Positions 31,994-58,639 of a DNA stretch of 64,000 nucleotides are shown here, piece after piece. Each line of letters starts with the position of its first letter. The first letter of the stretch is position 1. The position numbers and the translations under genes were made by a program. The stretch is from Planctomycetota bacterium (lineage in GTDB: Bacteria; Planctomycetota; PLA2; JAEUHO01). The stretch lies in NCBI GenBank assembly GCA_965222115.1, contig CBDCTJ010000007.1:2112001-2176000 (forward strand). Reading direction: 5' to 3'. The notes below the pieces were generated by a model. The model had not been told where the DNA came from. It made no database searches and saw only the letters and a program-made list of their open reading frames with translations.

Positions 31994-33563
<1,570 letters not shown>

Positions 33564-33839: not shown

Positions 33840-35284
33840 TTGAATGGGGGCTCGAAAGAGCCCAAACAAGCCAGGTTTAGTAACCACAATCGGCTTTTCG
33901 TGGCAGGGATGCTTCGGCGTCTTTGTTTGCGAAGAGCTAGTAGGTTCTTTACGAGTGGTGTGTGCGTGGGCATTTTTGTGTCTACGTAGACGCCAGATTC
34001 GTGATTCTCACGATTGGTTGAGGAACGTGAGTTCCGCAGTCAATTTGCAACAAACACTCGAGCCAAAGACTTAGTAACAATCAACGTTGCTTCATGAGGC
34101 GCAAGTCTCGTGGTGGCAGCGAAGGAAGTTTCTTGGTCAAGCTAATAAGGGTGTGTGGTGGATGCCTTGGCGCTGAGAGGCGATGAAGGACGTGGTCAGC
34201 TGCGATAAGCTTCGGGGAGGTGTAAACAACCTTTGATCCGGAGATCTCCGAATGCGGGAACGCGGTAGGGGTGAATTCCCTACCACTGCATGGTGAATGC
34301 ATAGCCATGTAGAGCCAACGGGGCGAACTGAAACATCTTAGTAACCCCAGGAATAGAAAGAAACATCGATGTCCGTAGTAGCGGCGAGCGAAATGGACAC
34401 AGCCCAAACCGTATGCATGTAAGTCTAGATGCGTTGTGTATGCGGTGTTGCGGGACCCATGTCTTGTAGATCTAGCTGCAGGCAGAAGTTACCAAAGCTA
34501 TGTGTAGCCGAAATACACTGGAAAGAATGCCGTAGAGGGTGATAGCCCCGTAGGCGAAACGCATAGCTCTTCTGATTGGGCACCCAAGTAGGGTCGGACA
34601 CGTGAAACCCGGCCTGAATCCGGGGGGACCACCCCCCAAGGCTAAATACTCCTCAGCGACCGATAGCGAACCAGTAGCGCGAGCGAAAATGGTGAAAAGA
34701 ACCCCTGTTAGGGGAGTGAAACAGTACCTGAAACCACATACCTACATTCTGTGGGAGCCCTATACATCTTCGGATGGATGGGTGACCGCGTACCTTTTGC
34801 ATAATGGGCCCGCGAGTTAATCTGTTCGGCAAGGTTAAGAGCTTCAGGCTCGGAGCCGTAGCGAAAGCGAGTACTAATAGTGCGTCCAAGTCGTGCGGAT
34901 TAGACCCGAAGATAAGTGATCTATCCATGGGCAGGATGAAGCGTCTGTAACAGGACGTGGAGGTCCGAACGGGTAAACGGTGAAAAGTTTTCCGATGACT
35001 TGTGGATAGGAGTAAAAGGCTTGCCAAACTTATCGATATCTGGTTCTCGCCGAAATGCCTTTAGGGGCAGCGTCGTGTTATAGCTACCGGGGGTAGAGAT
35101 ACTGATCGGGATAGGGGGGAGCAATCCTACCCTACCTAGCCAAACTCCGAATACCGGTGGCCTCTATCACGGCAGTGAGTCGTTGGGCGATAAGGTCCTC
35201 CGACGAGAGGGGAACAGCCCAGACCGTCAGCTAAGGTCCCCAATACATACTGAGTGCGAAAGGAAGTGGAAGTGCTAAGACAGC

Positions 35285-35338
<54 letters not shown>

Positions 35339-36176
35339 GTCGAGCATTTCTGCGCCGATAATAAACGGGACTAAGTATGTAACCGAAGCTACGGCTTTAT
35401 AACATCTGCGGATGCTATAAGGGGTAGGCGAGCGTAGGACGTTAGGTTGAAGCCGGACTGTGAAGACCGGTGGACGATGTTCTAGTGCGTATGCGGGCAC
35501 GAGTAACGAGAAATGCAGTGAGAATCTGCATCGCCGAAAACCCAAGGTTTCCTGGGCAAGGTAAATCCACCCAGGGTTAGTCGGACCCTAAGGCGAGGCC
35601 GAAAGGCGTAGTCGATGGATAACAGGTCAACATTCCTGTACCGGCTGGTATCCCGCAAGGGGTTGAGGAGGGGTGAAGAAGGCTAGGCACGCCAGCGTGT
35701 AGTAGTGCTGGTCCAAGGCAGTAGGGTTGAGCGTAGGCAAATCCGCGCTCTGCATACCTGAGAGCTGATGGGGAGACCGATTTTGAGTCGAAGGTGTTGA
35801 CGCCATGCTTCCGAGAAAAGCTTCGCAACATTGAGCCAGCCGTCCGTACCTCAAACCGACACAGGTGGGTGAGATGAGAATTCTAAGGCGCTCGAGAGAA
35901 CCATCGCTAAGGAACTCGGCAAAATAGCTCCGTAACTTCGGGAGAAGGAGTGCCCTCAGGGGTGATGAACTTCGCGTTCTGAGCTCAGGGGGGTCGCAGT
36001 GAAAGGTGGGCTGCAACTGTTTATCAAAAACACAGGTCTGTGCCAAGACGTAAGTCGATGTATACAGACTGACACTTGCTCAGTGACGGAAGGTTAAAGC
36101 AAGGGGTTAGCCCTCGGGCGAAGCTCCGAACCCAAGCCCCGTTAAACAGCGGCCGTAACTATGACGGTCCTAAGGT

Positions 36177-36928
36177 TAAGCGTTGCCCTTCGCCGGCTGC
36201 TTGTTTCAAGCATTTTGATTCAGGCGGTCGAGTGGCAGGCGGCGACCGTGGTGCCCGTTCGATCGGGAAGGAAGCCACGCAGCCTTAGTAAAATCGAACC
36301 ATATGCGGGAAACTCCTCCACAGCCGTCCGGTACTCGTGTTTTTCGTCAACGAAAGACGCAGTAACAATCCGGCGGACACGTTCATGAGTCCAGTACTTG
36401 TGGACAATGGGGACAATCCGCAGGGAAGGCCCTTTTGCAAGGGAACCCTCAGAGACTTTACGTTCGAGATCAGCCGATGAACCTTGACGCACAATGGATC
36501 GTAGGCTTCGTGGATGGCGAAGGCTGCTTTCATGTTGGGATTGCCAAGCACCCCGACATGACGGTGGGCCATCAGGTATTGCCTGAATTCGTCGTCGTGC
36601 AACACGAGCGCGATGTGCAGTTATTGCACGCATTCAAAGCATATTTCGGGTGCGGCGTGGTTCGTTCGAATCACGACGACCGAATGTGTTACCGCGTGCG
36701 AAAGCGCGAGCATCTGCTCACACACATCGTTCCGTTCTTCGTCAAGCACCCGCTCAAATCAAAGAAGCGCGTGGACTTTCAAAAGTTCCGCCGCGTCTTG
36801 CTCAAGATGGAAGCGGGCGATCATTTGACTGTCGATGGGCTGGAGGACATCCGGCGCATTGCACACCAGATGAATCGAGGTCGATCAAGATAAAGTCCGG
36901 CTTCGTTGGAAACAGCGGAGATGAACCG
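36177..36928 (+). mobile_element. Group I intron at 23S position L1931 (E. coli numbering), 752 nt
   Basis: Interrupts CCTAAGGT^AGCGAAATTCC; 5' exon ends in U and intron ends in G; internal guide CGTTGCCCTT; P ATATGCGGGAAA, Q AATCCGCAGG, R CTCAGAGACTTTACG, S AAGATAAAGTCC. Confidence 0.95.
36477..36893 (+). CDS. Single-motif LAGLIDADG homing endonuclease (intron-encoded)
   Basis: WIVGFVDGEGCF, FVVVQH, YFGCG, IVPFF...PLKSKKRVDFQKF, HLT..GL..I...MN. Confidence 0.95.
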   Translation: MNLDAQWIVGFVDGEGCFHVGIAKHPDMTVGHQVLPEFVVVQHERDVQLLHAFKAYFGCGVVRSNHDDRMCYRVRKREHLLTHIVPFFVKHPLKSKKRVDFQKFRRVLLKMEAGDHLTVDGLEDIRRIAHQMNRGRSR

Positions 36929-36963
<35 letters not shown>

Positions 36964-37486
36964 TGAATAGTGTAATGACGGCCCAACTGTCTCAGCGATG
37001 GACTCGGTGAAACTGTAGTTGTGGTGAAAATACCATGGCCCCGCGGCTAGACGGAAAGACCCCGTGAACCTTTACTGTAGGCTAATATTGGCGTTAGGCA
37101 TCTCATGTGTAGCATAGCTGGGAGTCGTTATAACCAAGGGTCGCTAGATCCGAGGGAGACATCAGTGAAATACCAGCCTTGTGGTGTTTGACTTCTAACC
37201 TCATGCCGTGAATCCGGGTGAGGAACAGTGTTAGTTGGGCAGTTTGGCTGGGGAGGTCTCCTCCTAAAAGGTAACGGAGGAGCGCAAAGGTACCCTCAGT
37301 ACGGTTGGCAATCGTGCGTAGAGCGTAAAGGTATAAGGGTGCTTGACTGCGAGACCGATGGGTCGAGCAGAAACGAAAGTTGGCCTTAGTGATCCGGCGC
37401 TTCCGAGTGGAAGGGGCGTCGCTAATCAGACAAAAGGTACTCCGGGGATAACAGGCTGATCCCGCCTAAGAGTCCATATCGACGGC

Positions 37487-37532
<46 letters not shown>

Positions 37533-37533
37533 G

Positions 37534-37585
<52 letters not shown>

Positions 37586-37961
37586 CAGACCGACGTGAGT
37601 CAGGTCGGTCCCTATCTGCCGTGGGTGTAGGAAAATTGAGGAGATATGACTTTAGTACGAGAGGATTTAGTTGTACGAACCTCTGGTGTGCCGGTTATCG
37701 CGCTAGCGGTAGCGCCGGGTAGCTATGTTCGGAACGGATAAACGCTGAAAGCATCTAAGCGTGAAGCCTTCTCCAAAACGAGTTTTCCCTATCAGACCCC
37801 TTGAAGACCACGAGGTGATAGGCCAGGCGTGTAAGCACAGCAATGTGTTCAGCGGACTGGTACTAATCGGTCGATCGGCTTGACCATTTTCCCTTCTGTG
37901 GCATGTGGATGCATGGCGCGTCTTGTTCGGTGGTTTCCAGCGAATGAGCAATGCAGCCATC

Positions 37962-38009
37962 CCTCTTCGGAGGACGAACCTCTTCGGAAGACAATCCTCT
38001 TCGGAAGAC
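37962..38009 (+). repeat. Three tandem repeats CCTCTTCGGARGAC with 17-nt period
   Basis: Copies at 37962, 37979 and 37996, each containing a C(UUCG)G tetraloop core. Confidence 0.85.
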
Positions 38010-38207
38010 CAAGCATGCACTGGAAGAGAAAACAAAGTCGGATAATTTGACGCGCCCATATGCAGCGCATGGGTTATCCGGTCTTTGCTCGAGCATGTCG
38101 TTTCGCGTGAGAGCGCGAGCGACGCGATGCAAATCGTGAGAAAATCATCTGGCGGAGTTGAAGCTCGGCACTGCGTGCCCTTGCCCCCATTCTTCCTTTT
38201 TATCAAA

Positions 38208-38371
38208 GGGGTGATCCCCCTTTCGCTCTTGACTTGAATTCGCTCGGCGAGGCCTCGCGTTCCAAGATCAAGAGCTAACCCCCCGTTTTTAACTAGGGGC
38301 ATAGCCCCTTTCGCATCGGACTTGAATTTCGCTCAGCGTTGCTTCGCGTTCCAAGATCCGCTGCTAACCCC
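38208..38371 (+). repeat. Structured dispersed element, copies B (38208-38284) and C (38296-38371)
   Basis: Both read GGGG..CCCC TTTCGC...GACTTGAATT(T)CGCTC...CGCGTTCCAAGATC...GCTAACCCC. Confidence 0.85.
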
Positions 38372-38382
38372 AAGTTAGTTTT

Positions 38383-38493
38383 TCCCGGTGCCCATACCTG
38401 AAGGGCCACACCCGATCCCATTCCGAACTCGACCGTTAAGCCTTCAGGGCCGATGATACTGCCGCAAGGTGGAAAAGTAGGTTAGTGCCGGGG
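38383..38493 (+). rRNA. rrf: 5S rRNA
   Basis: CCCGGTG...CACCCGATCCCATTCCGAACTCGACCGTTAAG...GCCGATGATACT...AGTAGGTTAGTGCCGGG. Confidence 0.96.
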
Positions 38494-38503
38494 TTTATTT
38501 GCG

Positions 38504-38552
38504 ATAGCCCAGTAGCCGTAGTGCTGCTGGGCTATTCTTTTTTTCTTTTTTT
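38504..38552 (+). terminator. Rho-independent terminator of the rRNA operon
   Basis: ATAGCCCAGTAGC/GCTGCTGGGCTAT stem followed by a long T tract. Confidence 0.9.
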
Positions 38553-38666
38553 GAAAGGGCGAAGCCCAATTTGCAGCGTTGCGGCCGGCACGTGCTTGCG
38601 GGGTAGGCTGCCCCGTCCATCTCTGGAGGATTGGATCTGTAGCTAGAAAGGGAAATTCGATGTCTT

Positions 38667-38696
38667 TGTGTGAATCTATGTGTAGAATCTCACACA
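38667..38696 (+). promoter_or_regulatory. vapBC promoter/operator palindrome
   Basis: TGTGTGA...TCACACA inverted repeat enclosing TAGAAT (-10), 7 nt before the antitoxin ATG. Confidence 0.65.
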
Positions 38697-38911
38697 TGGC
38701 AACCAATCTCTCAATCGATCCGAATTTGATCAACGAGGCTCTCGCTGTCAGTGGTCAGAAAACAAAAAAGGCTGCCGTCACCCTGGCCCTCAAGGAATTC
38801 ATTGCACGAAGAAGGCAAGCGAGGCTCGTGGAGTTGTTTGGGGCTCTGAAGTGGGACGATTCGTACAACTACAAGCGCGATCGCTCGCGCGGTAATTCCG
38901 AAGAGAGTTAG
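38696..38911 (+). CDS. vapB: VapB family antitoxin
   Basis: MATNLSIDPNLINEALAVSGQKTKKAAVTLALKEFIARR...YNYK, directly upstream of a PIN-domain gene. Confidence 0.9.
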   Translation: MATNLSIDPNLINEALAVSGQKTKKAAVTLALKEFIARRRQARLVELFGALKWDDSYNYKRDRSRGNSEES

Positions 38912-38913
38912 TT

Positions 38914-39318
38914 TTGGGGTACTTCGTCGATACCAGTGTTTGGTCACTGGCCTTTCGGCGCGACGTCATCGAGTCGTCCCCGCATGTCAAGCTGCTTTTG
39001 CAGCTACTCTCGGAGAGAGGCGTCGTCTTTTACACAGGACTTGTACTGCAGGAGTTGCTGCAGGGATTCGGTGGGCCACGCGCGTTCGACGAATTGCTTG
39101 AACGGTTCTCCGTGTTGCCGTGTCTCGAGCCGTCCCGTCAGGACTATGTGGGTGCAGCGAAGCTCCGCAACGTATGCCGCCGAAACGGCGTTCAAGTGGG
39201 AACGATCGATGCTCTGCTCGCTCAGCTGTGTCTTCGGCACGATCTCGAGATGCTCTCGACCGATGCAGACTTCTCAAACATGACCCCGCACTGCGGGATT
39301 CGGGTATGGGCACCCTGA
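38914..39318 (+). CDS. vapC: VapC PIN-domain ribonuclease toxin
   Basis: VDTSVWSLAFRR, VLQELLQG, GTIDALLAQL and STDADF acidic catalytic residues. Confidence 0.93.
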   Translation: MGYFVDTSVWSLAFRRDVIESSPHVKLLLQLLSERGVVFYTGLVLQELLQGFGGPRAFDELLERFSVLPCLEPSRQDYVGAAKLRNVCRRNGVQVGTIDALLAQLCLRHDLEMLSTDADFSNMTPHCGIRVWAP

Positions 39319-39496
39319 GTTTGACGCGATTCTCGGTGTGACACCCGTGGTAGTTCACGTCTTTGCGGCGCGATCCCAGTTTCGCGGTTTTCCGGGCCGA
39401 TGTTCGAACTTGGATCAGGCGTACCCCTTGCCAATCCCACCACCGGCGCTAGACTCCCGCTGCCGCGGATGACGATCTAGGTCATCGGCCATTCGT

Positions 39497-39573
39497 GGGC
39501 GTATAGCTCAGTCGGCTAGAGCGCCGCCCTGATAAGGCGGAGGTCCCTGGTTCAAGTCCAGGTACGCCCACCA
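39497..39573 (+). tRNA. tRNA-Ile (GAT)
   Basis: GGGCGTATAGCTCAG...CCGCC CTGATAA GGCGG...GGTTCAAGTCC...TACGCCCACCA; full cloverleaf with encoded CCA. Confidence 0.97.
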
Positions 39574-45341: not shown

Positions 45342-45413
45342 AGCCGGTGGTCAGGATTGAACTGACGACCTGCGGTTTACAAAACCGCTGCTCTACCACT
45401 GAGCTACACCGGC
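45342..45413 (-). tRNA. tRNA-Thr (TGT)
   Basis: Reverse complement GCCGGTGTAGCTCAGTGGTAGAGCAGCGGTTTTGTAAACCGCAGGTCGTCAGTTCAATCCTGACCACCGGCT; CCA not encoded. Confidence 0.95.
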
Positions 45414-45550
45414 GTGACGTCGGCGGACGGTACGAAGCCCGAGCCGGAGGGTCAAGATTCTACCTATGGCCCTTGCACGAAACACGAGCCCACGTACCCT
45501 CGAGAGTTGGAGATCTTAGATGGACGATGAGTTTCACGAGGAGCTTGGCG

Positions 45551-46300
45551 ATGGTCCATAAAGGTACAATTTTGGTTGCCGTCGTTGCAGGTGCGTTCGG
45601 TGGAATAACAGCAACACTCGTGATGAACTCATTCGACAAGAGCGAAAAACCAACTGATACCGTGTCGGAATCGTCGAAGGCTGGCGATGCCGCCGACTCC
45701 CAACGTACGCAGCAATCCAAGAAGCGAGGCAACTGGGCTCCTCGCGTCAACGAACCTGCCGCCGTAGCAACAATTCGAAACGCGGTAATGGCACAAGCCC
45801 AAGTGCAACAGAGCGCGAAGATTGACGTCGATATGGATGGGGTTGGGGAGCACGGTGGGCATAAGGAGCTTAGTGGCGCTCTGAAGGGTCGCATGAATGA
45901 GAAACTGTTTCCCCCCGTGCTGTCTGGTGCATTTCAGCATCTGCGAGATCCCGGAGTTGTGCTTCGCAGCGGCTATTGCTACCGCATATTCCTGCCCGGA
46001 GAGGATGGAGCACCCGTGGGCGAGCCCACAAATGGCTACTTGGGCAATAGCGCGATCGACGCTGACCTTGCCGAGAAAAACTTCGTCGTGTACGCGTGGC
46101 CCGTGGAGTACGGCAAGACGGGCAACCGGACGTTTGTCGTTAACCAACTTGGTGACGTCCTCGCCACCGAGTCCAAGACCTATTCGGGGGCGGATGCCGG
46201 CCCGGCAGGTGACGCCGCATATGTTGGATCAAGCCTCACCGCACCGCTCGCGAATGGCGTCAAGGCCAATGACGGGAATGTGTGGAAAATCGTTCCCTAG
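45551..46300 (+). CDS. Membrane-anchored pilin-like/DUF2950-like protein
   Basis: N-terminal hydrophobic helix; NEPAAVATIRN..AQAQ, DMDGVGEHG, SGYCYRI and YAWPVEYGKTGNRTFVVNQ. Confidence 0.75.
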   Translation: MVHKGTILVAVVAGAFGGITATLVMNSFDKSEKPTDTVSESSKAGDAADSQRTQQSKKRGNWAPRVNEPAAVATIRNAVMAQAQVQQSAKIDVDMDGVGEHGGHKELSGALKGRMNEKLFPPVLSGAFQHLRDPGVVLRSGYCYRIFLPGEDGAPVGEPTNGYLGNSAIDADLAEKNFVVYAWPVEYGKTGNRTFVVNQLGDVLATESKTYSGADAGPAGDAAYVGSSLTAPLANGVKANDGNVWKIVP

Positions 46301-46345: not shown

Positions 46346-47875
46346 TTGATGACGACGCCTGAGCTCTCGACCGACGATCTGCTCCGAGACCGGGCATGGA
46401 TTGTCAATATCGCGCGCGTTCTTGTGCGGGGTAAGGACACGGGTGAGGACGTGGCTCAAGATGTGTGGGTTGCGGCTCTGCGCCATCCGCCCAAGCGGCG
46501 CGAGCATGTCCGCGCCTGGTTCAATCGTGTTGCGCGCAATCGTGCGCGTGACCTCCATCGTTCTTCCGTTCGACGTGTCCGACGTGAAGCAGTCGCTGCT
46601 CGTCCTGCGTGGAGCGACGAGCACACGGCCGATGCCCTCGTCGAACGGGTGCGGCTTCAAGGCATCGTGGCCAGAGCCGTGGCCGAGCTGCAAGACCCGT
46701 ATCGGCACACCATTTTGCTCCGCTACTTCAAGGATCAATCCGTAGCTGATATCGCGGAACTTGAGGATATCTCCCAAGCCACGGTGCGTACGCGCCTTCG
46801 CCGCGGGCACGCGTCCTTGAGGCGACGTCTCTCACAACTAACTGGCGAATGTGAATCGGATTGGCGGCAGTCGCTTGTTCCGCTTGCCGTGACGACGCGT
46901 GCTGACGCGCTACACACATCAACTTCGGGCACGGGTTCCCTCGTTGCCCTTGGAGGAACTACCATGGCAGCGCATCTGAAGTCGGGCTGGCTCATCGCGG
47001 GAGCTCTCGTGGCGGGGCTCATCGGTGGCATGCTTGGCGTCTTGGTGGCGGGTCCTTTGCAAGGCGAAAACGACGGAAACCGTGCACAGCCCATGTTGGA
47101 AGCGAATCGCGACGAAACCGCTCGCTCGGCAGCCACTGAGAATCCTACATTGACGGCGGCATCACCCGAAGGCGACGATCGCCGGCTGCGCGACGACATC
47201 GATCAAATCATGGCTCAGCTTGCGGCATTGGAGGTTGCGTACGAGAAGGATCGTCTATCTCAGGAAACGATCGATCGAGCCTACAAATTGTCTCTTCGTG
47301 TGCTGCAGGAACGCGCTCGCGCCAATGAGACCGCGGCGGTTGCGACTTCGCGAAACGCGGTTTCTGCACAGGCACAGTTTCAGCACTCGGCAAAGGTCGA
47401 TACGGATGGCGATGGCACCGGCGAGTATGGTGGTTTCATGGAGCTCTCCGGTGCAACCAACGGTCGTATGCGTGCGGCGCTCGTACCGCCCGTGTTATCG
47501 CGTACATTTCGCGGCCTTTCGGAGAATGGGGAGGTCCTTCGAAACGGCTACTACTACCGTGTTTATCTTCCGGACGCCAATGGACAAGGGATCGGAGAGC
47601 CACAAGAGGGCTTTACCGACCAAAGCGGCATCGATGCTGATCTGTCCGAGACGACGTGGTGTATGTACGCATGGCCGGAAGAGTACGGCGTAACCGGGAC
47701 AAAGACGTTTATGGTCAACCAAGGAGGCGACACATTCGCCACCGACGATCGTCGCTACTCAGGCAGTGGGAATGGACCCAAACCGAACGCGGCGTTCACA
47801 ACCGACGGCATCGTGGGCTCACCCAAACACGATAAGCGCGGCAACGATGGCAATGTGTGGAAGCAGCGAGGATAA
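46346..47875 (+). CDS. ECF sigma-70 factor fused via a TM helix to a pilin-like/DUF2950-like domain
   Basis: Region 2 EDVAQDVWVAAL...WFNRVARN, region 4 YRHTILLRYF...TVRTRLRRG, TM helix, then ANETAAVATSRNAVSAQAQ and YAWPEEYGVTGTKTFMVNQ. Confidence 0.88.
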   Translation: MMTTPELSTDDLLRDRAWIVNIARVLVRGKDTGEDVAQDVWVAALRHPPKRREHVRAWFNRVARNRARDLHRSSVRRVRREAVAARPAWSDEHTADALVERVRLQGIVARAVAELQDPYRHTILLRYFKDQSVADIAELEDISQATVRTRLRRGHASLRRRLSQLTGECESDWRQSLVPLAVTTRADALHTSTSGTGSLVALGGTTMAAHLKSGWLIAGALVAGLIGGMLGVLVAGPLQGENDGNRAQPMLEANRDETARSAATENPTLTAASPEGDDRRLRDDIDQIMAQLAALEVAYEKDRLSQETIDRAYKLSLRVLQERARANETAAVATSRNAVSAQAQFQHSAKVDTDGDGTGEYGGFMELSGATNGRMRAALVPPVLSRTFRGLSENGEVLRNGYYYRVYLPDANGQGIGEPQEGFTDQSGIDADLSETTWCMYAWPEEYGVTGTKTFMVNQGGDTFATDDRRYSGSGNGPKPNAAFTTDGIVGSPKHDKRGNDGNVWKQRG

Positions 47876-47914: not shown

Positions 47915-49534
47915 TTATCGCGTCGTGCTTTGAGGCGCTACGGGCACCGTTCGTTCTTCTAGGCGCTTCTCGAATTGTTTAATGAAGGCTCGCTGCCACA
48001 TGGGCCGACCGCCTGTCTTCGCTCTTAGCGATTCGAAGAATGCCCAGGCTGGCTTGTCACCACAGCCTGACAAGAGTTCTGCGACCAAGAGAACCTGCTT
48101 CCAGTCCTTGACGACGTTGAGTTTCTTACCCATCTCGATGAGCGCAGCTTCGCAAGCCGCACGATCTTCCTTGGATAGCGTTGGAAACACCCGTCGATTC
48201 AACTCATCGTTGTAGCGCGGCTTGTAGTTCTCGTTCGGAAGCCCCGCGCCACTCGCTACCGTTTCGTCGATTTGCGACAGGAGCAACTTGACGCGCTCCT
48301 TCGGCTTGGCTTCCAGGCGCTGTAGCGCCAACAATCGCTTTGCGCCCGGGAGCCAAAACCCGAGGCGCTTCTCGGAGAACGCGTAGGACCGATCGATTTT
48401 CTGATAGGGACGCGTGGATTCCACGAGTTCGACTATTGCCTTGTAGTTGCCGGAATCGGCCAGCGTTTTGAGGGTCTCCTTCGCCCCCTTCATCTTCTCA
48501 GCGGCTTCGGCCACGCGCGCCTTCCAGGCCTCGACATCGGGCCCGCCGAGCGCGGAAACCAATTTGAAACTGTTCTTGAGTTGGTGCTTGTACTTGAGCG
48601 CGTGCCACGCCTTGATGGCGCGGGGCGCGAGTTCAAGTCGCAGCGACTCGGGCCACGACGCGATCAAGTTCAAGAAACGCTGATTGCCCTTGCGCCGCAA
48701 TTCGCGAAACGGTTTCGTTGGATTGCGCATCAGACCGGCGATCGCATTCTTCTTCTCGGCTTCGCCCCATGTTGCTGGGTCTTTCATGAGCATCACCATG
48801 CGCGCCGCGTGATCGCGCATGTGTTTGAGATCATCGGGATCTACGCCGGCATCGGGGCAGTCTTTGATCGCATGTTCGAGCAACTGCAGCCCTTTGGTGT
48901 AGGCCGCCGCTGCCAACGTCTTGTCAATTTCGCCCCGGAGACGCTTTAGATCTGCGCGTGCAGCCATGAGGGCATTGCGATTGCGCACCCACACGACTTC
49001 CTTCACGTCCAACGTATAGATGCGTTCGTGATACCCCATCACACCACCGTGTGCATCGCCATGCACCTCGCCGTGGGGAAGTCCGTTTCCGTACCACTTG
49101 AGATGAGATGAACCAAAGGAGCCCACCAGTGTGCACGTACCTCGCACACGCACGAAACATCGCGAACCCGGCTTCGCCAGTGCCTTCCTTACTCTCTCGT
49201 TGCCAATACCCGTGACGAACCAATGCTCCACCGCCATATGATGCTGGAGCAACGGCATGAATCCTATGCGTCCATCCTCAAGTTTCGTTATGGCTCCCGA
49301 GAGATCCACCGGCTCTGGGGGCGACGTGTAGACGTTCTTCGTTCCCAAGATCTTTTTGGCGTGCGCGACGGCCTCGTCTGGCGTCTTGTATGGCGTGGGT
49401 TTTAGTGGATTGCCGTCTTCTGCGTGTGCAGCCGGTGTGGCGTGCATGAACAGGCTTACCGCTGCGACTGCAATGCTTACTCGGAACCACCTGGATGCGT
49501 TCAATCTGGATTCACACCAGGACACTGCGTTCAT
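47915..49534 (-). CDS. Secreted hypothetical protein, paralogue of 49847-51430 (start uncertain)
   Basis: Signal peptide ending AHA; DGRIGFMPLLQHHMAVEHWFV, CFVRVRG, WYGNGLPHG, GYHERIY. Confidence 0.85.
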   Translation of the reverse strand: MNAVSWCESRLNASRWFRVSIAVAAVSLFMHATPAAHAEDGNPLKPTPYKTPDEAVAHAKKILGTKNVYTSPPEPVDLSGAITKLEDGRIGFMPLLQHHMAVEHWFVTGIGNERVRKALAKPGSRCFVRVRGTCTLVGSFGSSHLKWYGNGLPHGEVHGDAHGGVMGYHERIYTLDVKEVVWVRNRNALMAARADLKRLRGEIDKTLAAAAYTKGLQLLEHAIKDCPDAGVDPDDLKHMRDHAARMVMLMKDPATWGEAEKKNAIAGLMRNPTKPFRELRRKGNQRFLNLIASWPESLRLELAPRAIKAWHALKYKHQLKNSFKLVSALGGPDVEAWKARVAEAAEKMKGAKETLKTLADSGNYKAIVELVESTRPYQKIDRSYAFSEKRLGFWLPGAKRLLALQRLEAKPKERVKLLLSQIDETVASGAGLPNENYKPRYNDELNRRVFPTLSKEDRAACEAALIEMGKKLNVVKDWKQVLLVAELLSGCGDKPAWAFFESLRAKTGGRPMWQRAFIKQFEKRLEERTVPVAPQSTTR

Positions 49535-49692
49535 CCGTAGCCGAATGTGTATCACGAAGCCTCCTGTGGCGTCTGAGCTTGGTTGTCTCATAAACCTGTC
49601 ATGGGTACGTCGATCAGCAAGGCGCGTACGGTGATCTGTAGGAGCGATGGCCTCGCTGCAAGTCTTAGATCTTGCGACCGCAAGAATCTTAC

Positions 49693-49846: not shown

Positions 49847-51430
49847 TTACTTACCCCCCGCCCTCGCTACCAGCCGCTCCCGCAACGTCTTCGCAAACGC
49901 ACGACACTGCTTGGCACGATTCTTCCACCGAATCTTGGCTGCAAATGCATCAATGGCCGTTGCCGCATCTTCATTGCCGACGGAGGCCAGCAGTTCACAT
50001 GCGACGAGGCCCGACTTCCATTGCTTGTTCGCGTCAAAGCCCTCAAGTAGTTGAACTAGATCCTTTGAAATCGTGGAACGCTCCGCGCCAGTAAGATGTG
50101 GAACGACATGCATGATGAACTGTTCACTATAACGCGGCTTGGTTACCTGGTGCGGGAGAATCATCGGCTTGTCGATTTCCAATGCCAGTTGCTTGCGAAT
50201 CATCGGTAGGCGTTTAGCGGGATCTTTCATGACGCCGCGTAGCGCGGTCAAGCGGGCGACACTCCCTTTCCACTTTTCAATCGTGTCGGGCCTCAACATA
50301 TAAGACTTGTTGATGCGCTGATAGGGCTGGACGTCAGCGAGTACCTTGTCGATGGCCTCATACCTTTGTTCAGCAGCCAGCGAAACGATTGTCTTGAGCG
50401 CTTCATCGACTTTGATGGCTGCCTCGGCTACTGCCGCCCTCCACGCGTCCACATCAGGCCCGCCCAACGCTTCCACGAGTGGCGTTGTCAACTTGTGTTG
50501 ATGTCTGTGTTTGAGCGCGTACCACGACTTGATGGCGTCGGGCGCGAGGTCGTGACGAATGGCCTCGGGCCAGTTCCCCACGAGCTCGAGAAAGCGTGGG
50601 ACCGCATTGCGATGGTCTTCGCGGAAAGCACTCACGGGGTCGCGCATCAGCATTTGAATTGCCATAGCACGATCTTCTTGGGTCCACGTTTTGGGATCTT
50701 TCGTCACCGCGATCATGCGGCGCAAGTAATCCCTTTGAGACGCGATGCCGCGTGTGTGAACGCCGGCGTCCTTCGCACCGCGTAGGGCCGAATCAACAAG
50801 CGTTAGCGCCTCCGCGTATCTGCCTTGCTTGGCAGCGGCTTTGGCACGGGCATCGTCTCGCTTGGCCTTGGCTTGCGCCTCTCTTATCTCCGCAAGGCTC
50901 TTGATCCACACCACGTCGTCAACTGCGAGCCGATAGACCCGCTCGTGATAGCCGCGCACGTGCATATCGCCCTTCACGTAGGTACCGCCGTGCGCGAGTC
51001 CATTGCCGTACCAGTCGAGCGCACCGCGCCCGTAGGCGCCAAGCAACGTCGCATTGCCACGCACGCGCACAAAGCAGCGACCGTTCTGTTTGTCCAGCGC
51101 TTCGGCGATCTTGCCGTCGCTCAGTCCGTCCACAAACCAGTGTTCGACCGCCATGTGGTGTTGGAGCATTGGCATAAATCCAATGCGACCGTCCTTTGAA
51201 CGCGACACGGCGCCCACGAGGTCCACATCCTTTGCAGGCTGTGCTTTGAGCGCCTCGTTCTGCAGTAGCTTCTTGGCATGAGCGAGTGCCTCTTCCGGCG
51301 TCTTGAAGGGCGTGGGATCCAGAGGGTTGTCTTCGGCATGTGCCATCGGACTGGCGCTTGCGAGCAATGCCACGCTCAGGACGCAGGCAAGCAACATCCG
51401 CCGTCCGATGGGCGCGTCGCATTCAGTCAT
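49847..51430 (-). CDS. Secreted hypothetical protein, paralogue of 47915-49534
   Basis: GGAGA RBS; signal peptide ending AHA; DGRIGFMPMLQHHMAVEHWFV, CFVRVRG, WYGNGLAHG, GYHERVY. Confidence 0.88.
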   Translation of the reverse strand: MTECDAPIGRRMLLACVLSVALLASASPMAHAEDNPLDPTPFKTPEEALAHAKKLLQNEALKAQPAKDVDLVGAVSRSKDGRIGFMPMLQHHMAVEHWFVDGLSDGKIAEALDKQNGRCFVRVRGNATLLGAYGRGALDWYGNGLAHGGTYVKGDMHVRGYHERVYRLAVDDVVWIKSLAEIREAQAKAKRDDARAKAAAKQGRYAEALTLVDSALRGAKDAGVHTRGIASQRDYLRRMIAVTKDPKTWTQEDRAMAIQMLMRDPVSAFREDHRNAVPRFLELVGNWPEAIRHDLAPDAIKSWYALKHRHQHKLTTPLVEALGGPDVDAWRAAVAEAAIKVDEALKTIVSLAAEQRYEAIDKVLADVQPYQRINKSYMLRPDTIEKWKGSVARLTALRGVMKDPAKRLPMIRKQLALEIDKPMILPHQVTKPRYSEQFIMHVVPHLTGAERSTISKDLVQLLEGFDANKQWKSGLVACELLASVGNEDAATAIDAFAAKIRWKNRAKQCRAFAKTLRERLVARAGGK

Positions 51431-51455
51431 GGTTTCTCCACGGGTCACTGAGTTC

Positions 51456-53057
51456 CTACTTGCTTTGTGTAGTCGCATGCGACGTACGGCCAAACCGACG
51501 AATACTCCGCTCGCGCCAGAGTCGCGCAACCCGCTGTCGAAGCACCTCAATCGGATTGTGTATATCCGTCAATCGGGCAGCAGTCGTAAAGTCGATTGAC
51601 TCCAGATTGATGGGTGTTGGCCACTCAATGTCCATTTCGCTTGCCCGGTCGCGACTCGATTCGTCTTCAATCGGGCCGTTACTCGCAAATAGCGTCATGG
51701 GAGCGATCGTGGCGCCTCGATCCGGTGCGAAGAGTTGGACATGGGCGAACGATGCCATTGCCGCTGCCAAAATGGCTCGGACGGCGTCGTCGTGGGGCTG
51801 CCCGATTAAGTTGACTGCGAGCAGTCCCTCGGACGTTAGTCGCATCGCCATTCGATGAAAGGCCTGTTCGCTGAACAGATGTGCGGGCAGCAGCTCACCC
51901 CGGTACACATCCAAAACGATGAGCGAGTAGGTGTCGGATGTTCGATTTAAAAATCGCCGACCGTCTTCGATGGTTACAGGAAGGCTCAAGTCAAAGTGTT
52001 TGCGCGCCAGGCTTACAACGTGAGGGTCGATCTCCACGGCCTGCACCTGCCAATCCGCGTCAATGAGCGCGTTTGGAAAGGCGCCGCCACCCAATCCGAT
52101 TACCAAAGCGCGTCCTGGTTCGGGGCGCATCCAGCGCGCGAGTTCAAGTGCATTGCCGGATGCGAGCAAGGCGCCGGGTGGAGGAGGACCGAGTGAAATC
52201 AACGGCGCCGATGTTTGCAGCACACCATCCACGAGCAAGTAGCGCGAGACGTCATCTTCGAGCACTTCGTGACGCCCATAGAAACTGTCCACGCGTTCAA
52301 TGCGTTGCAGTCCGAATGCACCTGACGACGCGTCGCTTGCGTCCGTTGCATCGAGCGTATGGTGGCAACAGAACCAGGTAACACCCGCGAGGCACATGAG
52401 CACAAGCATGACGACACGCATTCGTGTGCGTGTGATGCTGGACGCAATCAGGGCGGTGGCGCCAATCCCCACGACAAGCGACAGCGTGGCTCCGATCAAC
52501 CCCTGTTGCGGAATGAGGTAGAGACCCGCGGCGAGTGCTCCACCCGCACTACCAATCGTTCCCACGGCGTAGGTGGCGCCCGCGGCGCGACCGGATGCAA
52601 TGCCCGTGTCGCTATATGCCTGGACTAGTCGTGGCGACATCATGCCCCACGCAATGAGTGACGGCGCGAGCAGCGCCGACGCAACGAGGCCGAGTGAGGG
52701 TGGATCTGCCGCGTCTGCATTTGCAACGTAGGCCATCGCGGCCGCCATGAACGCGCCGCCAACGGCAAGGCACGTCATGGCAATCATGAGCGAGTGTCTT
52801 GGCTCACGACGACGCGAACTCGGGCGGCCGAGCCAAGCACCGAGCGCGAGTGATGCCAACGAGATGGCCAATACCACAGCCCAGACTTGCAGACCGCTTC
52901 CATAGAGCGGCGCCAGCCAACCTGCCGCCATGATTTCTTGCATGAGTACGGCGGCACCACCAACCGCCGCAAGGAGCAGCGCTGCCACGCGCACAGATCG
53001 GGATCCTGACCCCTGCGGGGCGTTTGCATCGTGCCGGCTCATGGGGCCATTGGACAC
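51456..53057 (-). CDS. Fused membrane domain / spermidine synthase-like methyltransferase
   Basis: N-terminal TM helices (LAPLYGSG, AGATYAVGTIGS), DSFYG, LLVDGVLQT, ALVIGLGGG, VEIDP, DGRRFL, IVLDVY, PAHL. Confidence 0.88.
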   Translation of the reverse strand: MSNGPMSRHDANAPQGSGSRSVRVAALLLAAVGGAAVLMQEIMAAGWLAPLYGSGLQVWAVVLAISLASLALGAWLGRPSSRRREPRHSLMIAMTCLAVGGAFMAAAMAYVANADAADPPSLGLVASALLAPSLIAWGMMSPRLVQAYSDTGIASGRAAGATYAVGTIGSAGGALAAGLYLIPQQGLIGATLSLVVGIGATALIASSITRTRMRVVMLVLMCLAGVTWFCCHHTLDATDASDASSGAFGLQRIERVDSFYGRHEVLEDDVSRYLLVDGVLQTSAPLISLGPPPPGALLASGNALELARWMRPEPGRALVIGLGGGAFPNALIDADWQVQAVEIDPHVVSLARKHFDLSLPVTIEDGRRFLNRTSDTYSLIVLDVYRGELLPAHLFSEQAFHRMAMRLTSEGLLAVNLIGQPHDDAVRAILAAAMASFAHVQLFAPDRGATIAPMTLFASNGPIEDESSRDRASEMDIEWPTPINLESIDFTTAARLTDIHNPIEVLRQRVARLWRERSIRRFGRTSHATTQSK

Positions 53058-53204
53058 GCCTCAACTCGCTGAGTTCACAATTGCGTGCCTAACGCGAAGG
53101 GCGGCGAACAAGGGACTTTCGACGAGGTCGAAGCGCGTAACGCTGTACCCAGTCCGCATACGCTATAGGAGCGCCCGAGACCTGGGGCGAAGTCGGAGTC
53201 CTCT

Positions 53205-54332
53205 ATGCGTATGCCATGTTTCGTCGGGGCGTTTGCTGCGGCGTGTCTACTTTTTGCGTTGCCCGCCACACTGCGTGCCGAAGAGGGTCAGGGGCCCGCC
53301 GATGACAACGCGGTGCTTGCCGATCTCAATCTGGGCGATCATTGGTTTGGTCCCGAGATTTCGCATAAAGACCTCAAGGGCAAAGTAGTGCTCTTTGAAA
53401 TGTGGGGCCACTGACCGGGTTGCAAGGCGATTACGCCGCATTTGGTCAGTTTGGCCAAGCGACTCGAAGGTCGACCCTTCCATCTCATTGCTAGCTTTTG
53501 CCAGCGGGGTGAACGAGACACTACGGTTGCCTACATCAAGTCCAAGGGGCTCGAAGCGAACACGCCCAATTTGACCGTCACGTACCAAGGGCGGCATGCC
53601 GGCATCAAAGGTAATGGGTATGTGCCCTACTACGCGGTATTCGATCACCGCGGCAACCTTGCCCATCATCACATGTGTGGTCAGTGGCACGGTGGCGATG
53701 GACTCAAGATGATCGAGTGGGTGGACAAACTGCTGGAAGATGCGCCTGGTATCTATCTCGGCGACGAGCCCTACGAGAAAATTGCTGCGATTGCGAAGCA
53801 AGTCAGCAAAAAGAAGAGTCTTGCGGGTGCCGTGAAGAAACTCGACAAGGGGATGGCCTCGGAAGACACCGACGCCGAAACCAAGACCGAAATGAAGCGA
53901 TTGTACGACGCGCTCACCGCCTGGCGCGACGGGGCTATGAAGCGCGCCGTAGATGCAATGGCCACCGAGCCGTCCGACGTCGTGGTGCGCCTGACGCAAT
54001 TAAGTAGGGATTTCAAGGGCTCGAGCCTCGGTGCCGATGTGGACGAGCGACTGAGGACCATTAAGGCGAGCAAGGAACTCAAGACATCCATCGCCATTGC
54101 GAAGAAACGTGACAAGATCTTGAAGGGCCTAGCGAAACTCAAGCCCTGCAAGTCGTGCAAGCGCAAGGGCTCTTCCGCGGCGCGAAAGGCGTGTGCCGCG
54201 TGCCGCAAGGAGAACGCAAAGGCTTTCGAGCGCGCTGAGAAGAAGTGGAAGGCGCTCATTGAGGAGGCCGCGGACCTGCCCATCCAAGCCACGCTTGAAA
54301 AGGTACTCCCCCGGATCCAGGGCAAAAAGTAG
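53205..54332 (+). CDS. Exported TlpA/thioredoxin-like selenoprotein (UGA at 53412-53414 read as Sec), 375 aa
   Basis: ORFs 53205-53414 and 53442-54332 are in the same frame; read-through gives DLKGKVVLFEMWGH-U-PGCKAITPHL (UxxC); signal peptide; hairpin at the UGA. Confidence 0.85.
53410..53450 (+). promoter_or_regulatory. Putative bacterial SECIS hairpin
   Basis: ACTGACCGGG..TGC AA GGCG ATTA CGCC GCA TTTGGTCAGT: lower stem includes the UGA, upper stem GGCG/CGCC. Confidence 0.7.
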
Positions 54333-55351: not shown

Positions 55352-55993
55352 ATGCCACTTGAATCAATCGAGCTACCCATCGACGCGCCGCGGTTTCGCC
55401 GCACGCCGCCGCCCGAAGTCGTGTCGCTTCTCCGCGACGCGGACGAGTTCGTACACAACTTCGTAGAAGATCGACTCGACGACCCCATTGCTGGCTATGT
55501 CCCGTGTGACTTTCAGTTGGCGTATTTCGCGTTGCGGCACGTTGTCGAGCGTCGGTTGATGCTTGGCAGTACATTTTGCGAGTGGGGGAGCGGGCTGGGC
55601 ATTGTTTCCTGCCTGGCGGCTTGTCTCGACTTTGACGCGTCAGGCATCGAGATCGAGGGCGAACTTGTCGAGGCATCGACGGCTTTTGCCCGCGACCACG
55701 AAATCGTCGTTGAGTTGGTTCAAGGGAGCTTTATTCCGCCCGGTTCGGACGACTGCCTCGACGACGTGGGGGACTTTGCGTGGTTGCTTCCCGGTGGCCA
55801 CGACGGTCATGCGCTGCTCGATCTGGACGTGGACGACATCGATGTGGTCTTCGCCTACCCGTGGCCCGGTGAAGAGGACATCGTATTTGATCTCTTCAAT
55901 CATCACGCAGCGCCCGGCGCGCTTCTGCTCACGTACCACGGGATGGATTCGATGCGCCTGCAGCGAAAGCGACGGGCTAAGGGGCGTCGCTAG
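55352..55993 (+). CDS. Class I SAM-dependent methyltransferase
   Basis: YVPCDF, FCEWGSGLG, GIEIE, GSFIP, VFAYPWPGE, LLTYHG. Confidence 0.85.
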   Translation: MPLESIELPIDAPRFRRTPPPEVVSLLRDADEFVHNFVEDRLDDPIAGYVPCDFQLAYFALRHVVERRLMLGSTFCEWGSGLGIVSCLAACLDFDASGIEIEGELVEASTAFARDHEIVVELVQGSFIPPGSDDCLDDVGDFAWLLPGGHDGHALLDLDVDDIDVVFAYPWPGEEDIVFDLFNHHAAPGALLLTYHGMDSMRLQRKRRAKGRR

Positions 55994-57434
55994 TCCGATC
56001 CAGATCGAAGTAGTCGAGAATGAAGGCACGCGGATCGTCGCTCTTGATGCAGCGCACCATGTCGAGCAGACGCTCCAAATCGCGCTTGCGCTTAGCGGCC
56101 GTTTCTTCGGGGCTCACCCGTGTGTGGTCTAGCGGCTCAACGTATCGAAAGCGACCTTCGACGGGCGTGGGTTCAATTACGCCCAGATCGGCAAGCGTAA
56201 TGACGACGTAGTCCATTTGGCCGTGGCTGCCACCCTTGCCAAGGACTTCGAGTCGCAATTCGTCTACGTCAAAGTCTGCGTGCGCATACGTGCGTAACAT
56301 CTCGGCCGTGCGCGTGACAAGATCAACTGGCGGATTCTTCCATTCCACGAAGTTTTGCTGAATGGCGAGATCTTCGCCGGCATAAAGCAGTGTGCAGTCG
56401 GAGGTGAGTCCATCGCGACCCGCGCGGCCAACTTCTTGGTAGTAAGCCTCCACACTGCCCGGCACTTGCGCATGCACAATGAAGCGAATATCGGGCTTGT
56501 CCACGCCCATGCCAAACGCGTTGGTCGCACAGAGTAGCAATCGTTCGTCCGGCGTGGCCTCAATGAACTCGTCATAGATCTTCTTCTTGTGGGACGGATC
56601 GAGCCGGCCGTGATACATCACCACGCGTCGATCAGGGAGTGCCTTACGAATGTCGTGCGCCATACGCTCTAAGTCTTTAATCAGAGCGAAATACACTATG
56701 CCCGTGCCGCCCATGGCGATGGCAATGCGTGCAATTTTGGCCACCTTCTCTTGATCGCCATGGACTTCGCGCATCGAAAGACTCAGATTGGGTCGATCGA
56801 GCCCCTGCGCAAAGAGCGGCATGGCCTCGTCGGTGCGATCCAGGGTGCGTAAGATGTCGGCGCGAACTTCGGCAGTAGCGGTAGCTGTTAGCGCGATGGT
56901 GGGCGGTGAACCCAGCGCATCGCGGTAGCGACCCACGTCCTGGTACGCAGGGCGCAAGTCGTGACCCCATTTTGTGATGCAGTGGGCTTCGTCAATTGCG
57001 AGCAGTTTGATGGCGCGCCCGTCGCGTTTCCGTCGTGACTCGAGCGCCGCCGTGAACTCGGGCTTCCCCATACGCTCGGGCGTGGCATAGAGAATCTCAA
57101 ACGCGCCCTCGGCCACTTGCTGGTAACGCTTCTCGCGCTTGGCCTTGCTCAGTGTGCTGTTGATGTAGGCGGCGTCCACGCCCTTGCGCCGAAGCGCCGA
57201 CACTTGGTCTTCCATTAGTGCGATGAGCGGACTGAACACCAGCGTGAGTCCCGGGCCCGGCAGCGCGAGCGCCGGGAGTTGATAGCAAAGGCTCTTGCCC
57301 GAGCCCGTGGGCATGACGACAAGTGCGTCACCGCCGCTCATAACCCGTTCTATGATCTTGGCTTGAAGCGGACGTAGCGCTTCCAGTCCAAAACGGGATT
57401 CCAATACCCGTTGGACGTCGGACGATGTTGGCAC
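55977..57434 (-). CDS. recQ: RecQ family ATP-dependent DNA helicase (short form)
   Basis: MPTGSGKSLCYQLP, SPLIALMEDQV, DEAHCITKWGHDLRP, ALTATA, ATNAFGMGVDKPDIR, YYQEVGRAGRDG. Confidence 0.93.
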   Translation of the reverse strand: MPTSSDVQRVLESRFGLEALRPLQAKIIERVMSGGDALVVMPTGSGKSLCYQLPALALPGPGLTLVFSPLIALMEDQVSALRRKGVDAAYINSTLSKAKREKRYQQVAEGAFEILYATPERMGKPEFTAALESRRKRDGRAIKLLAIDEAHCITKWGHDLRPAYQDVGRYRDALGSPPTIALTATATAEVRADILRTLDRTDEAMPLFAQGLDRPNLSLSMREVHGDQEKVAKIARIAIAMGGTGIVYFALIKDLERMAHDIRKALPDRRVVMYHGRLDPSHKKKIYDEFIEATPDERLLLCATNAFGMGVDKPDIRFIVHAQVPGSVEAYYQEVGRAGRDGLTSDCTLLYAGEDLAIQQNFVEWKNPPVDLVTRTAEMLRTYAHADFDVDELRLEVLGKGGSHGQMDYVVITLADLGVIEPTPVEGRFRYVEPLDHTRVSPEETAAKRKRDLERLLDMVRCIKSDDPRAFILDYFDLDRTSDAP

Positions 57435-57442
57435 GTTGGACG

Positions 57443-58639
57443 CTATTTCGTTGCTGTTGAAGCGGCCGCGGAGGAGGCCTGTTTGCCTTGTTCCGGTGCC
57501 ACGGCAACGCCGTCTTTGGTCAACCCAAGTTTGTCGAAGGACTTTAGAATCTTGGTTCGCGCGCGCGCCCACTTGAGCCGCAACAGTGATCCGTATTTGG
57601 CGTACGCTTTGGCCTCGAAGGAACGGGCCTCCAGGCGAGCGTCTCGCATGCGTTCTAACAGGTCGGCGGTGTCGCTCACGACAGACGCGTCGCCTTTCCA
57701 CGTACTCAGCGCATTGCGAATGCGGTTCTCTTCCGCCGCCTGCAAGGTGGCCACGATGGCTCGCAGGGATAACATTTGGAACTGAAGCGTTTCACGCTGC
57801 TGTTCCATATGCTCTTGATTGCCCGCGTGAAGCTGTGTCAACTTGTCTTCAATGGCGGCCTGCTCGATCTCCCACTCGATTCGCGCCGCCTCGCGGCGTT
57901 CGATCTCTGCCTGTACGTAGTGTGCAAGTCGCCAGTAGTAATCGATTTCGTGTTTCCACACTGGGCGCCCATGGCGCAAACGACGATCGAAGTCGTGTTC
58001 GAGATTCCTCAACTCGTGATGACCAGCCGGCAGGCCCGTGTGAGGATTGTGGCGTCGTACTCCTTTGGACCCGAGTCCGAGCGGGCTCGTAACTTTTACG
58101 CGCACGGTTTCGTACTGATTCATCGCGCCACCGAGTTCGGTGTAGAGCGCGGCAATCTCGCGAACGGCCCGCGTCCAGTGCTTGGGCGCTAGGTGGATCC
58201 AGCTTGTGTGGGTCGTGGGTCGCAGCCAGCGATCGGCACTCTTGAACCACTCGACACGGCGGGTCATGCGACGTGCACGGGGCTTCAAAATGGAGCGCCA
58301 CGCATCCACCGCAGCCCGGTCGTATTTGCCGCGGGACGGTGCCTTCTGATGAAGAGCCAACTGGCCGCGAAACGCGGCAAACAACGCACGCAAATCGACA
58401 GGTCCCTGGGGTTGTGTTGGTGCGTCGGACTTGGCGGGATTTTGGCCTTCGCCGGGCTCCGCTTCACGTGGCGCTTCGGCCTCGCTCGGATCGCCGGGCG
58501 ATTTGGGTGCCGGAGCGGGGGCCCCAGGGGCTTCGTCCTCCCCGAACGCGCAATTTGAGATGTTTGGGAGGCTCAAAGCAAGTGAAATGAGCGCTATGCG
58601 GGCGAGGAGGGACGCCCAACTACGAGTTGCAACTACCAT
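57443..58639 (-). CDS. Secreted coiled-coil hypothetical protein
   Basis: Signal peptide, Pro/Ala-rich linker and helical body; 398 aa. Confidence 0.75.
   Translation of the reverse strand: MVVATRSWASLLARIALISLALSLPNISNCAFGEDEAPGAPAPAPKSPGDPSEAEAPREAEPGEGQNPAKSDAPTQPQGPVDLRALFAAFRGQLALHQKAPSRGKYDRAAVDAWRSILKPRARRMTRRVEWFKSADRWLRPTTHTSWIHLAPKHWTRAVREIAALYTELGGAMNQYETVRVKVTSPLGLGSKGVRRHNPHTGLPAGHHELRNLEHDFDRRLRHGRPVWKHEIDYYWRLAHYVQAEIERREAARIEWEIEQAAIEDKLTQLHAGNQEHMEQQRETLQFQMLSLRAIVATLQAAEENRIRNALSTWKGDASVVSDTADLLERMRDARLEARSFEAKAYAKYGSLLRLKWARARTKILKSFDKLGLTKDGVAVAPEQGKQASSAAASTATK

Follow-up and report, generated by a model that had tools for sequence, protein, structure and literature searches.

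A predicted exported UxxC selenoprotein of the TlpA/YkuV type, split in annotation at its UGA codon, from Planctomycetota

Bacterial selenoproteins with a UxxC redox motif have been described in several thioredoxin-fold classes, and Table 1 of a recent review, in its available portions, includes a thiol-disulfide isomerase-like class (cd02966), a redoxin class (PF08534) and a Prx-like thiol:disulfide oxidoreductase class (PF00578) (PMC13188914). The bacterial SECIS (bSECIS) model given there requires a loop of 3-9 nt with G[GU] at its start, a stem of 4-16 bp and a loop located 16-37 nt from the UGA. The loop G usually stands about 20 nt from the UGA, variation being absorbed by a hinge of SelB, according to the accessible part of PMC4605307. 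Among thioredoxin-fold proteins without Sec, the YkuV protein is described, in the portion of PMC5300871 at hand, as the reductase of the peroxidase AhpA. Full Sec systems have been documented in other Planctomycetes (PMC4807772, available in part).

The window analysed in this work is the whole stretch of 64,000 nucleotides. It carries on its forward strand a frame (53205-54332) whose translation with TGA read as U yields 375 residues, U70 being the sole recoded codon. The internal TGA (53412-53414) stands in KGKVVLFEMWGH-U-PGC, where it opens the UxxC of a thioredoxin fold. The initial annotation had treated two open reading frames as a single frame broken by a lone TGA at the first Cys of the CxxC and had expected gene callers to split it. 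Both points are borne out: translation table 11 cuts the frame into two separate ORFs of 69 and 296 residues. The HHHMCGQWHGGDG motif and the C-terminal Cys pairs listed at the same time are found in the read-through translation, the latter as C315/C318/C330/C333. The split gene very probably encodes one exported Sec-using redox enzyme of an overlooked family. The reading favoured here, to which we give a probability of roughly 0.72, is that of a predicted exported Sec-dependent thiol-disulfide oxidoreductase of the TlpA/YkuV type. The gene and its product comprise the following features.

53195..53198, + strand: probable ribosome binding site GGAG, 6 nt 5' of the ATG
53205..54332, + strand: predicted single gene of 375 codons with the internal TGA read through, terminating at TAG
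53205..53279, + strand: predicted Sec-pathway signal peptide, residues 1-25, with a putative A-x-A-like cleavage site before EEGQG
53301..53747, + strand: TlpA/ResA/YkuV-type thioredoxin-fold domain, about residues 33-181
53412..53423, + strand: U70-P-G-C73 redox motif, with Cys counterparts in L022, P0109, P0115, P0121 and P0154
53622..53633, + strand: VPYY; P141, Y142 and Y143 in 107 of 107 protein matches
53664..53702, + strand: signature loop HHHM-C-G-x-W/Y-HGGDG, a 5-residue insertion relative to YkuV, before GGDG
53748..54329, + strand: all-helical C-terminal domain, residues 182-375, model pLDDT 97.6
54147..54203, + strand: optional C-x2-C-x11-C-x2-C insert, a putative zinc site or two disulfides

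Around the gene, neither a sigma-70 promoter-like site nor a terminator-like site on the + strand was seen.

In a scan of GTDB genomes, 26 related loci were retrieved. Codon 70 is TGA in 24 of them and TAA or TAG in none; these 24 loci and the window gene constitute the 25 TGA genes referred to below, which show 44-93% identity (median 62%) across the 100 residues after the UGA. The two other loci are L022 (Rohdeia mirabilis Pla163), where TGC (Cys) occupies the U position, and L026, a distant relative with neither TGA nor Cys there. The named relatives recovered by protein search all belong to the Planctomycetota. The family is systematically mis-annotated, as 106 of the 107 database matches (window ORF counted) are fragments that start at residue 71 or beyond, 53 of them exactly at 71. 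Since these entries begin after the UGA, the catalytic residue and the signal peptide are missing from the protein databases. An N-terminal fragment, 87% identical, terminates at the same residue as the 69-residue piece of the window, which argues against a sequencing error. Such an error, a pseudogene and a genome-wide change of code are all considered unlikely.

A deeper protein search was evaluated from the best 150 of 590 matches, of which 141 proteins were examined for motif spacing; WGxCxxC was found in 4 and WGxxCxxC in 52. Four full-length relatives have Cys at the U position with the same short W-G-x-C spacing, and reading by eye showed three Ser and one Thr at this position in P0110, P0120, P0149 and P0102, from which it follows that the fold persists in some relatives without the redox residue. 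Homologues with UGA or Cys, which the initial annotation had proposed to look for, thus exist, and the conserved in-frame UGA aligned to Cys, a pattern characteristic of bacterial selenoproteins, lends support to the Sec read-through suggested there. The W-to-U spacing had also been described as one residue short. This holds relative to the wider family, W-x2-U/C being present throughout the clade in place of the W-x3-C of TlpA/ResA-like thioredoxins, but the spacing is common to Sec and Cys forms and is therefore a family trait and not a peculiarity of this gene.

A quick midpoint-rooted tree was built from 51 chosen rows (the 25 TGA genes, L022, 11 full-length variants and 14 WGxxC matches). 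L022 groups with four TGA genes (support 99), P0154, P0149 and P0195 group with L023 (support 100), and the WGxxC proteins form a separate group (support 94). Cys and Ser forms fall within several TGA clades, a pattern that would fit repeated loss of Sec. Two loci deserve separate mention. L023 (8743-9210, Verrucomicrobiales) is a short form ending after the thioredoxin domain; the UGA and the distal hairpin (hairpin 2 below) are kept, and the proximal hairpin 1 and the helical tail are missing. L024 lies on a contig labelled Glaciecola sp. with 60% GC; its gene groups with the Planctomycetota locus L020 (support 98) and has two upstream genes in common with it, so that the contig is probably mis-binned. 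Longer, fused forms were absent among 7999 candidates, a result of little evidential weight.

At the protein level, an N-terminal hydrophobic stretch is present in all 26 genes examined, with a best 11-residue hydropathy of 2.59 in the window gene and of 1.56-3.09 across the set, in agreement with the export claimed from the first. The claim of a TlpA-like fold was likewise supported by the protein model (pLDDT 87.5), which gives a TlpA/ResA-type match over residues 29-181, in keeping with a thioredoxin fold bearing the N-terminal hairpin and the insertion typical of TlpA. Structural comparison yielded Z 12.9 to the DipZ C-terminal domain (5cyy, rmsd 3.7, 149 aligned) and Z 12.9 to YkuV (2b5y, rmsd 2.8, 137 aligned); overall, DipZ, YkuV, DsbE and ResA are matched at Z 12-13, with Foldseek E values of 2e-5 to 1e-4, and the family profile matches YkuV 2b5x (E 0.0055). 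U70 and C73 follow strand 61-67 in the model, and the UxxC is accompanied by a predicted cis-Pro loop whose P141 is invariant. VPYY, located where thioredoxins have their cis-Pro loop, and the signature loop, with G164, D165 and G166 in 107 of 107 matches, are the most conserved parts of the protein. By analogy with thioredoxins, both loops presumably lie beside the active site; the signature loop is modelled with low confidence (pLDDT <50 at residues 160-163).

The helical tail has no Pfam match and no Foldseek match at E 0.001. Its best structural Z, 7.3, was obtained with generic helical bundles in a wide search and is no proof of a new fold. The Cys-rich tail had been presented as part of the architecture. 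The insert is indeed there in the window gene, but it is optional in the family (11 of 25 TGA genes, 49 of 106 non-self protein matches) and must consequently be regarded as accessory and outside the catalytic core. In the distant relatives P0192 and P0226, a thioredoxin domain with helical tail and four-Cys module is found after H-x3-C-x2-C, a hydrophobic stretch and a linker rich in Pro, an arrangement reminiscent of anti-sigma factors.

The main rival to the oxidoreductase accepts Sec insertion as proposed and makes of the protein a sensor or metal-binding module, in which U70/C73, C158 and the HHH/HGGDG loop would bind a soft metal or report the redox state and the tail would relay the signal. 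The near invariance of the His/Cys/Asp loop (C158 itself is present in 97 of 107 matches), the persistence of Ser and Thr forms and the anti-sigma-like arrangement of P0192 and P0226 are consistent with such a function. However, the position of the UxxC, the VPYY loop and the fold all match those of working oxidoreductases, C158 is replaced by Gly or Ala in 8 of the 25 TGA genes, and neither a Pfam match nor the signature loop is found in P0192 and P0226. A sensory or metal-binding role is accordingly held to be improbable.

The RNA at and after the UGA can adopt three hairpins.

53410..53450, + strand: long hairpin pairing the UGA itself; stable in the window gene, not conserved, mutually exclusive with hairpin 2
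53426..53437, + strand: small hairpin 1 of 4 bp with a G-less loop here, beginning 11 nt after the UGA; semi-conserved
53442..53458, + strand: SECIS-like hairpin 2, a 7-bp stem with a GUU loop; distance from the UGA 27 nt to the stem and 33-34 nt to the loop

The consensus fold of the family alignment consists of a single hairpin, which is hairpin 2. It is present in 25 of 25 TGA genes against 0.64 expected from synonymous resampling, 98.3% of its cells are paired, one U-A pair is replaced by C-G in 6 genes, a compensatory change, and a score this high is reached in none of 500 shuffles; the genes being related and four of the seven pairs invariant, these resampling and shuffle figures overstate independence and are not to be read as probabilities. 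Codons +10 to +14 show constraint on the nucleotides themselves across the TGA genes. Within them, Leu is encoded by TTG in 16 of 25 genes, versus 10% elsewhere in these genes, and Ala by GCC in all 25. The loop codon is AGT, GGT or AGG, that is Ser, Gly or Arg, and the loop G is kept throughout. No such hairpin is left in the Cys gene L022 (-0.9 versus -6.1 kcal/mol). As far as the available description of the bSECIS model goes (PMC13188914), hairpin 2 agrees with it in loop, G, stem and spacing in 25 of 25 TGA genes, the loop at 33-34 nt lying near the far end of the permitted range and farther out than the usual 20 nt or so mentioned in the accessible part of PMC4605307. With respect to the -7.5 kcal/mol rule given in the same portions of PMC13188914, the 19-nt hairpin of the window reaches -7.0, or -13.0 when hairpin 1 is included, values that depend on span and parameters; taken alone, hairpin 2 is at or below -7.5 kcal/mol in 17 of the 25 TGA genes. 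The E. coli fdhF SECIS is similar in its short stem and G[GU] loop, and the GGUCU loop found in 8 of 25 TGA genes is the same as in fdhF; the difference is that the fdhF upper stem begins 11 nt after the UGA, in contrast to 27 nt here with a small second hairpin in between. Rfam returned no match at the hairpin at the gathering threshold. A covariance model of the UGA region, run over 473 kb, recovered the family only (L022 at 58 bits, next best E 0.09). Judging by these comparisons, the putative SECIS is the downstream hairpin 2 and not the hairpin that buries the UGA. As a separate observation, codons +17/+18 (CTC GAA, window 53463-53468) are unusually fixed, with CTC in 24 and GAA in 20 of 25 genes, and no pairing partner was found for them.

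The hairpin that the initial annotation had placed at the UGA codon does fold strongly, being the minimum-energy fold of the window gene (z -5.3). It was nevertheless rejected as the SECIS: the UGA is paired within it, its AUUA loop contains no G and its full 7-bp stem is complete in 1 of 25 TGA genes. Across the alignment 72% of its cells pair and the covariation is weak (54 of 500 shuffles reach the score). An alternative limited to the RNA, and compatible with the protein reading, would have this long hairpin, or hairpin 1 at the canonical 11 nt, act as the recoding signal, hairpin 2 being kept for another reason. In addition to the stability of the long hairpin in the window gene, it can be said for this view that a UCR able to pair with the UGA is available in 24-25 of 25 genes and that hairpin 1 starts where the upper stem starts in E. 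coli. A stem that pairs the UGA cannot, however, exist while the UGA is being decoded, owing to ribosome geometry. As for hairpin 1, it belongs to the minimum-energy fold of 24 of 25 TGA genes, with a mean pair probability of about 0.6, but it is missing in L023, its loop is variable and mostly without G, covariation support is absent and its bases are partly retained in the Cys gene L022. That either of them is the signal appears quite unlikely, and hairpin 2 is retained as the candidate SECIS, hairpin 1 being an element that may shorten the effective spacer.

The remaining explanations dispense with Sec. According to the first, a suppressor tRNA or an altered code would cause the UGA to be read as Cys or Trp. 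Cys homologues do exist, and Sec machinery was not encountered near the genes: E. coli SelA, SelB and SelD proteins gave no tblastn match for selA, selB or selD in the window or the 26 loci (473 kb, small slices of many genomes), and ARAGORN detected no tRNA-Sec in the window or the 26 flanking regions (473 kb over many genomes), the two tRNAs of the window being others. Against this reading, UGA is in regular use as a stop, since 5 of 26 family genes and 15 of the 49 window ORFs given by a rough caller terminate with TGA. Trp is found at the U position in none of the full-length matches, and the hairpin with the G loop accompanies the UGA and is gone where the codon is TGC. Read-through as Cys or Trp is thus judged very unlikely. 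The use of Sec is also indirectly supported by the flanks of L003 and L017, as each contains a further thioredoxin gene that encodes a signal peptide and is interrupted by TGA at a UxxC; a hairpin of -12.7 kcal/mol with a GUU loop follows 18-20 nt after that codon. Finally, a true stop, either as a programmed split with re-initiation just after it or as a pseudogene or sequencing error, is hardly credible, for although the next codon is GTG in 12 of 25 genes and is used as a start by gene callers, re-initiation fails to explain a pattern in which the other 13 have GTC, GTA, GTT, ATC, ATA or CCG, the stop is always TGA, both halves are conserved and in frame, intact Cys orthologues exist and, according to the model, a split would part the signal peptide and first strand from the remaining fold.

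The two flanking genes are candidate selenoproteins in their own right. The L003 gene (13816-14880, - strand, TGA at 14676) encodes a signal peptide and a ResA-like domain with NYQSW-U-PGC, followed by a second, degenerate thioredoxin domain; its hairpin lies 20 nt after the UGA and it remains under every NCBIfam cut-off. The L017 gene (11059-12045, + strand, TGA at 11242), located directly downstream of the family gene, encodes a signal peptide, a Thioredoxin_7 domain with GRKL-U-GNC and a helical tail, the hairpin being 18 nt after the UGA. The window itself yielded no second selenoprotein candidate.

The mechanism envisaged for the favoured oxidoreductase can be summarized as follows. A ribosome arriving at UGA70 would have melted the long stem, allowing hairpin 2 to fold; SelB would then bind the G-containing loop and Sec would be inserted. 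Of the 27 spacer bases, 12 are probably taken up by the folding of hairpin 1, which would bring hairpin 2 within reach of SelB. In the absence of selenium, termination at the UGA would be expected to release a 69-residue fragment. The step with the strongest support in the scheme is SelB-dependent insertion directed by hairpin 2; on the comparative sequence evidence, this insertion appears highly probable. The N-terminus suggests that the protein would be exported by the Sec pathway and its signal peptide cleaved, giving a soluble periplasmic protein. From the fold and motif, the U70 selenolate would attack an envelope protein at a disulfide or an oxidised thiol, C73 would resolve the intermediate to a selenenylsulfide and a membrane relay of the DsbD/CcdA type would re-reduce the latter. 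The face turned to the substrate would most likely consist of the VPYY and C-G-x-Y-HGGDG loops; docking of a partner might fall to the helical tail. Export, U70/C73 dithiol-disulfide exchange and recycling by the membrane relay, taken from knowledge of fold and family, are considered likely. As the nearest characterised relative, YkuV/AhpT, reduces a peroxidase, repair of envelope proteins or antioxidant supply to them would be the most likely role by analogy. A more far-reaching interpretation combines an uncatalogued family with a two-hairpin signal (a G-less spacer hairpin at the canonical position, about 12 nt folded out and a distant SelB hairpin), a new periplasmic selenium redox or metal-sensing site made of Sec, the third Cys and the His-Asp loop, and several independent replacements of Sec by Cys or Ser; as a whole this remains speculative and rather doubtful.

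The gene is flanked by a divergent gene for a spermidine-synthase-like membrane protein, the other neighbours being unknown genes. Conservation of the neighbourhood was limited to a single clade, whose 6 loci have a tricorn protease gene upstream; the context therefore names no substrate. No conserved redox partner adjoins the gene in the window or the related loci. A RecQ-like helicase gene occurs near 6 of 27 family gene copies. Further features of the window are listed below.

31993-39573, + strand: rRNA operon (16S, 23S, 5S), with tRNA-Ile about 1 kb after the 5S; the Rfam match of the 23S spans 3753 nt, longer than the 2925-position model
45347-46300 and 46346-47875, + strand: pair of neighbouring DUF2950-like genes following tRNA-Thr; an ECF-type sigma factor is fused to the second
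47915-49591 and 49847-51550, - strand: paralogous genes in tandem, both with a probable signal peptide and the motif QHHMAVEHWF, no Pfam match
55977-57701, - strand: RecQ-like helicase gene, with homologues near the family gene in L011, L013, L015, L018 and L019

With this analysis, a predicted family of exported selenoenzymes is added from Planctomycetota that are for the most part uncultured; the phylum goes unmentioned in the accessible main text of the 2026 review (PMC13188914) and of the BSepDB paper (PMC13326102). The natural Sec/Cys/Ser series of the family, including the Cys form of the cultured Rohdeia mirabilis, offers a direct test of the benefit of selenium to a periplasmic thioredoxin, and the far-placed hairpin a test of the reach of SelB and of its compensation by a spacer hairpin.

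In comparison with known systems, the closest solved folds are those of Bacillus subtilis YkuV/AhpT (2b5x, 2b5y) and of the thioredoxin domains of DipZ, SOQ1-type and NHLRC2 proteins (Z 12.9). The segments VP-x-YY-VFD-x-x-G and GG-x-G-x-KM are common to the family and YkuV; the latter is a 148-residue single domain without the 5-residue loop insertion and without the helical tail and is not known to have Sec or a signal peptide. The wider exported WGxxCxxC TlpA proteins (e.g. P0124, P0157) are similar in signal peptide, thioredoxin domain, helical tail and, sometimes, four-Cys insert, but differ by normal spacing, Cys and a short GHP-type loop replacing the signature loop, in addition to their separate position in the tree. 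Pfam scores are below cut-off for AhpC-TSA (19.6 bits, cut-off 26) and Redoxin (13.7, cut-off 26.6). The NCBIfam model NF041054 (ResA-like WAxxUGC motif-containing protein) has a similarly placed ResA/TlpA-like domain and a similar length of 354; the window protein, however, scores 15.7 bits against its cut-off of 300, and its motif is WGH-U-PGC, UxxC and not UGC. As NF047696 TlpA (24.5 of 230 bits) and NF002854 ResA (14.9 of 170) also stay under the curated cut-off, no curated NCBIfam family tested fits.

A literature search reaching few subscription journals found no paper describing the family, and the accessible portions of PMC8938466 and bioRxiv 10.64898/2026.04.03.716425 contain nothing on it. 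Its motif and architecture are likewise absent from the available parts of the selenoprotein table of PMC13188914. The selenoprotein family is judged real and probably uncatalogued, the comparison with the review classes and with BSepDB (PMC13326102, in its accessible part) being one of descriptions and not of sequences. On that basis, the family is set apart from the cd02966, PF08534 and PF00578 UxxC selenoproteins by its short W-G-x-U spacing, the C-G-x-Y-HGGDG loop, the 190-residue helical tail and the optional four-Cys insert. What it has in common with them is the TlpA/redoxin thioredoxin fold, Sec in place of the first Cys of the CxxC and a hairpin downstream of the UGA. The surprise is limited, since a UxxC in a TlpA fold is chemistry of an already known kind and the predicted enzyme works like the known UxxC TlpA/redoxin selenoproteins.
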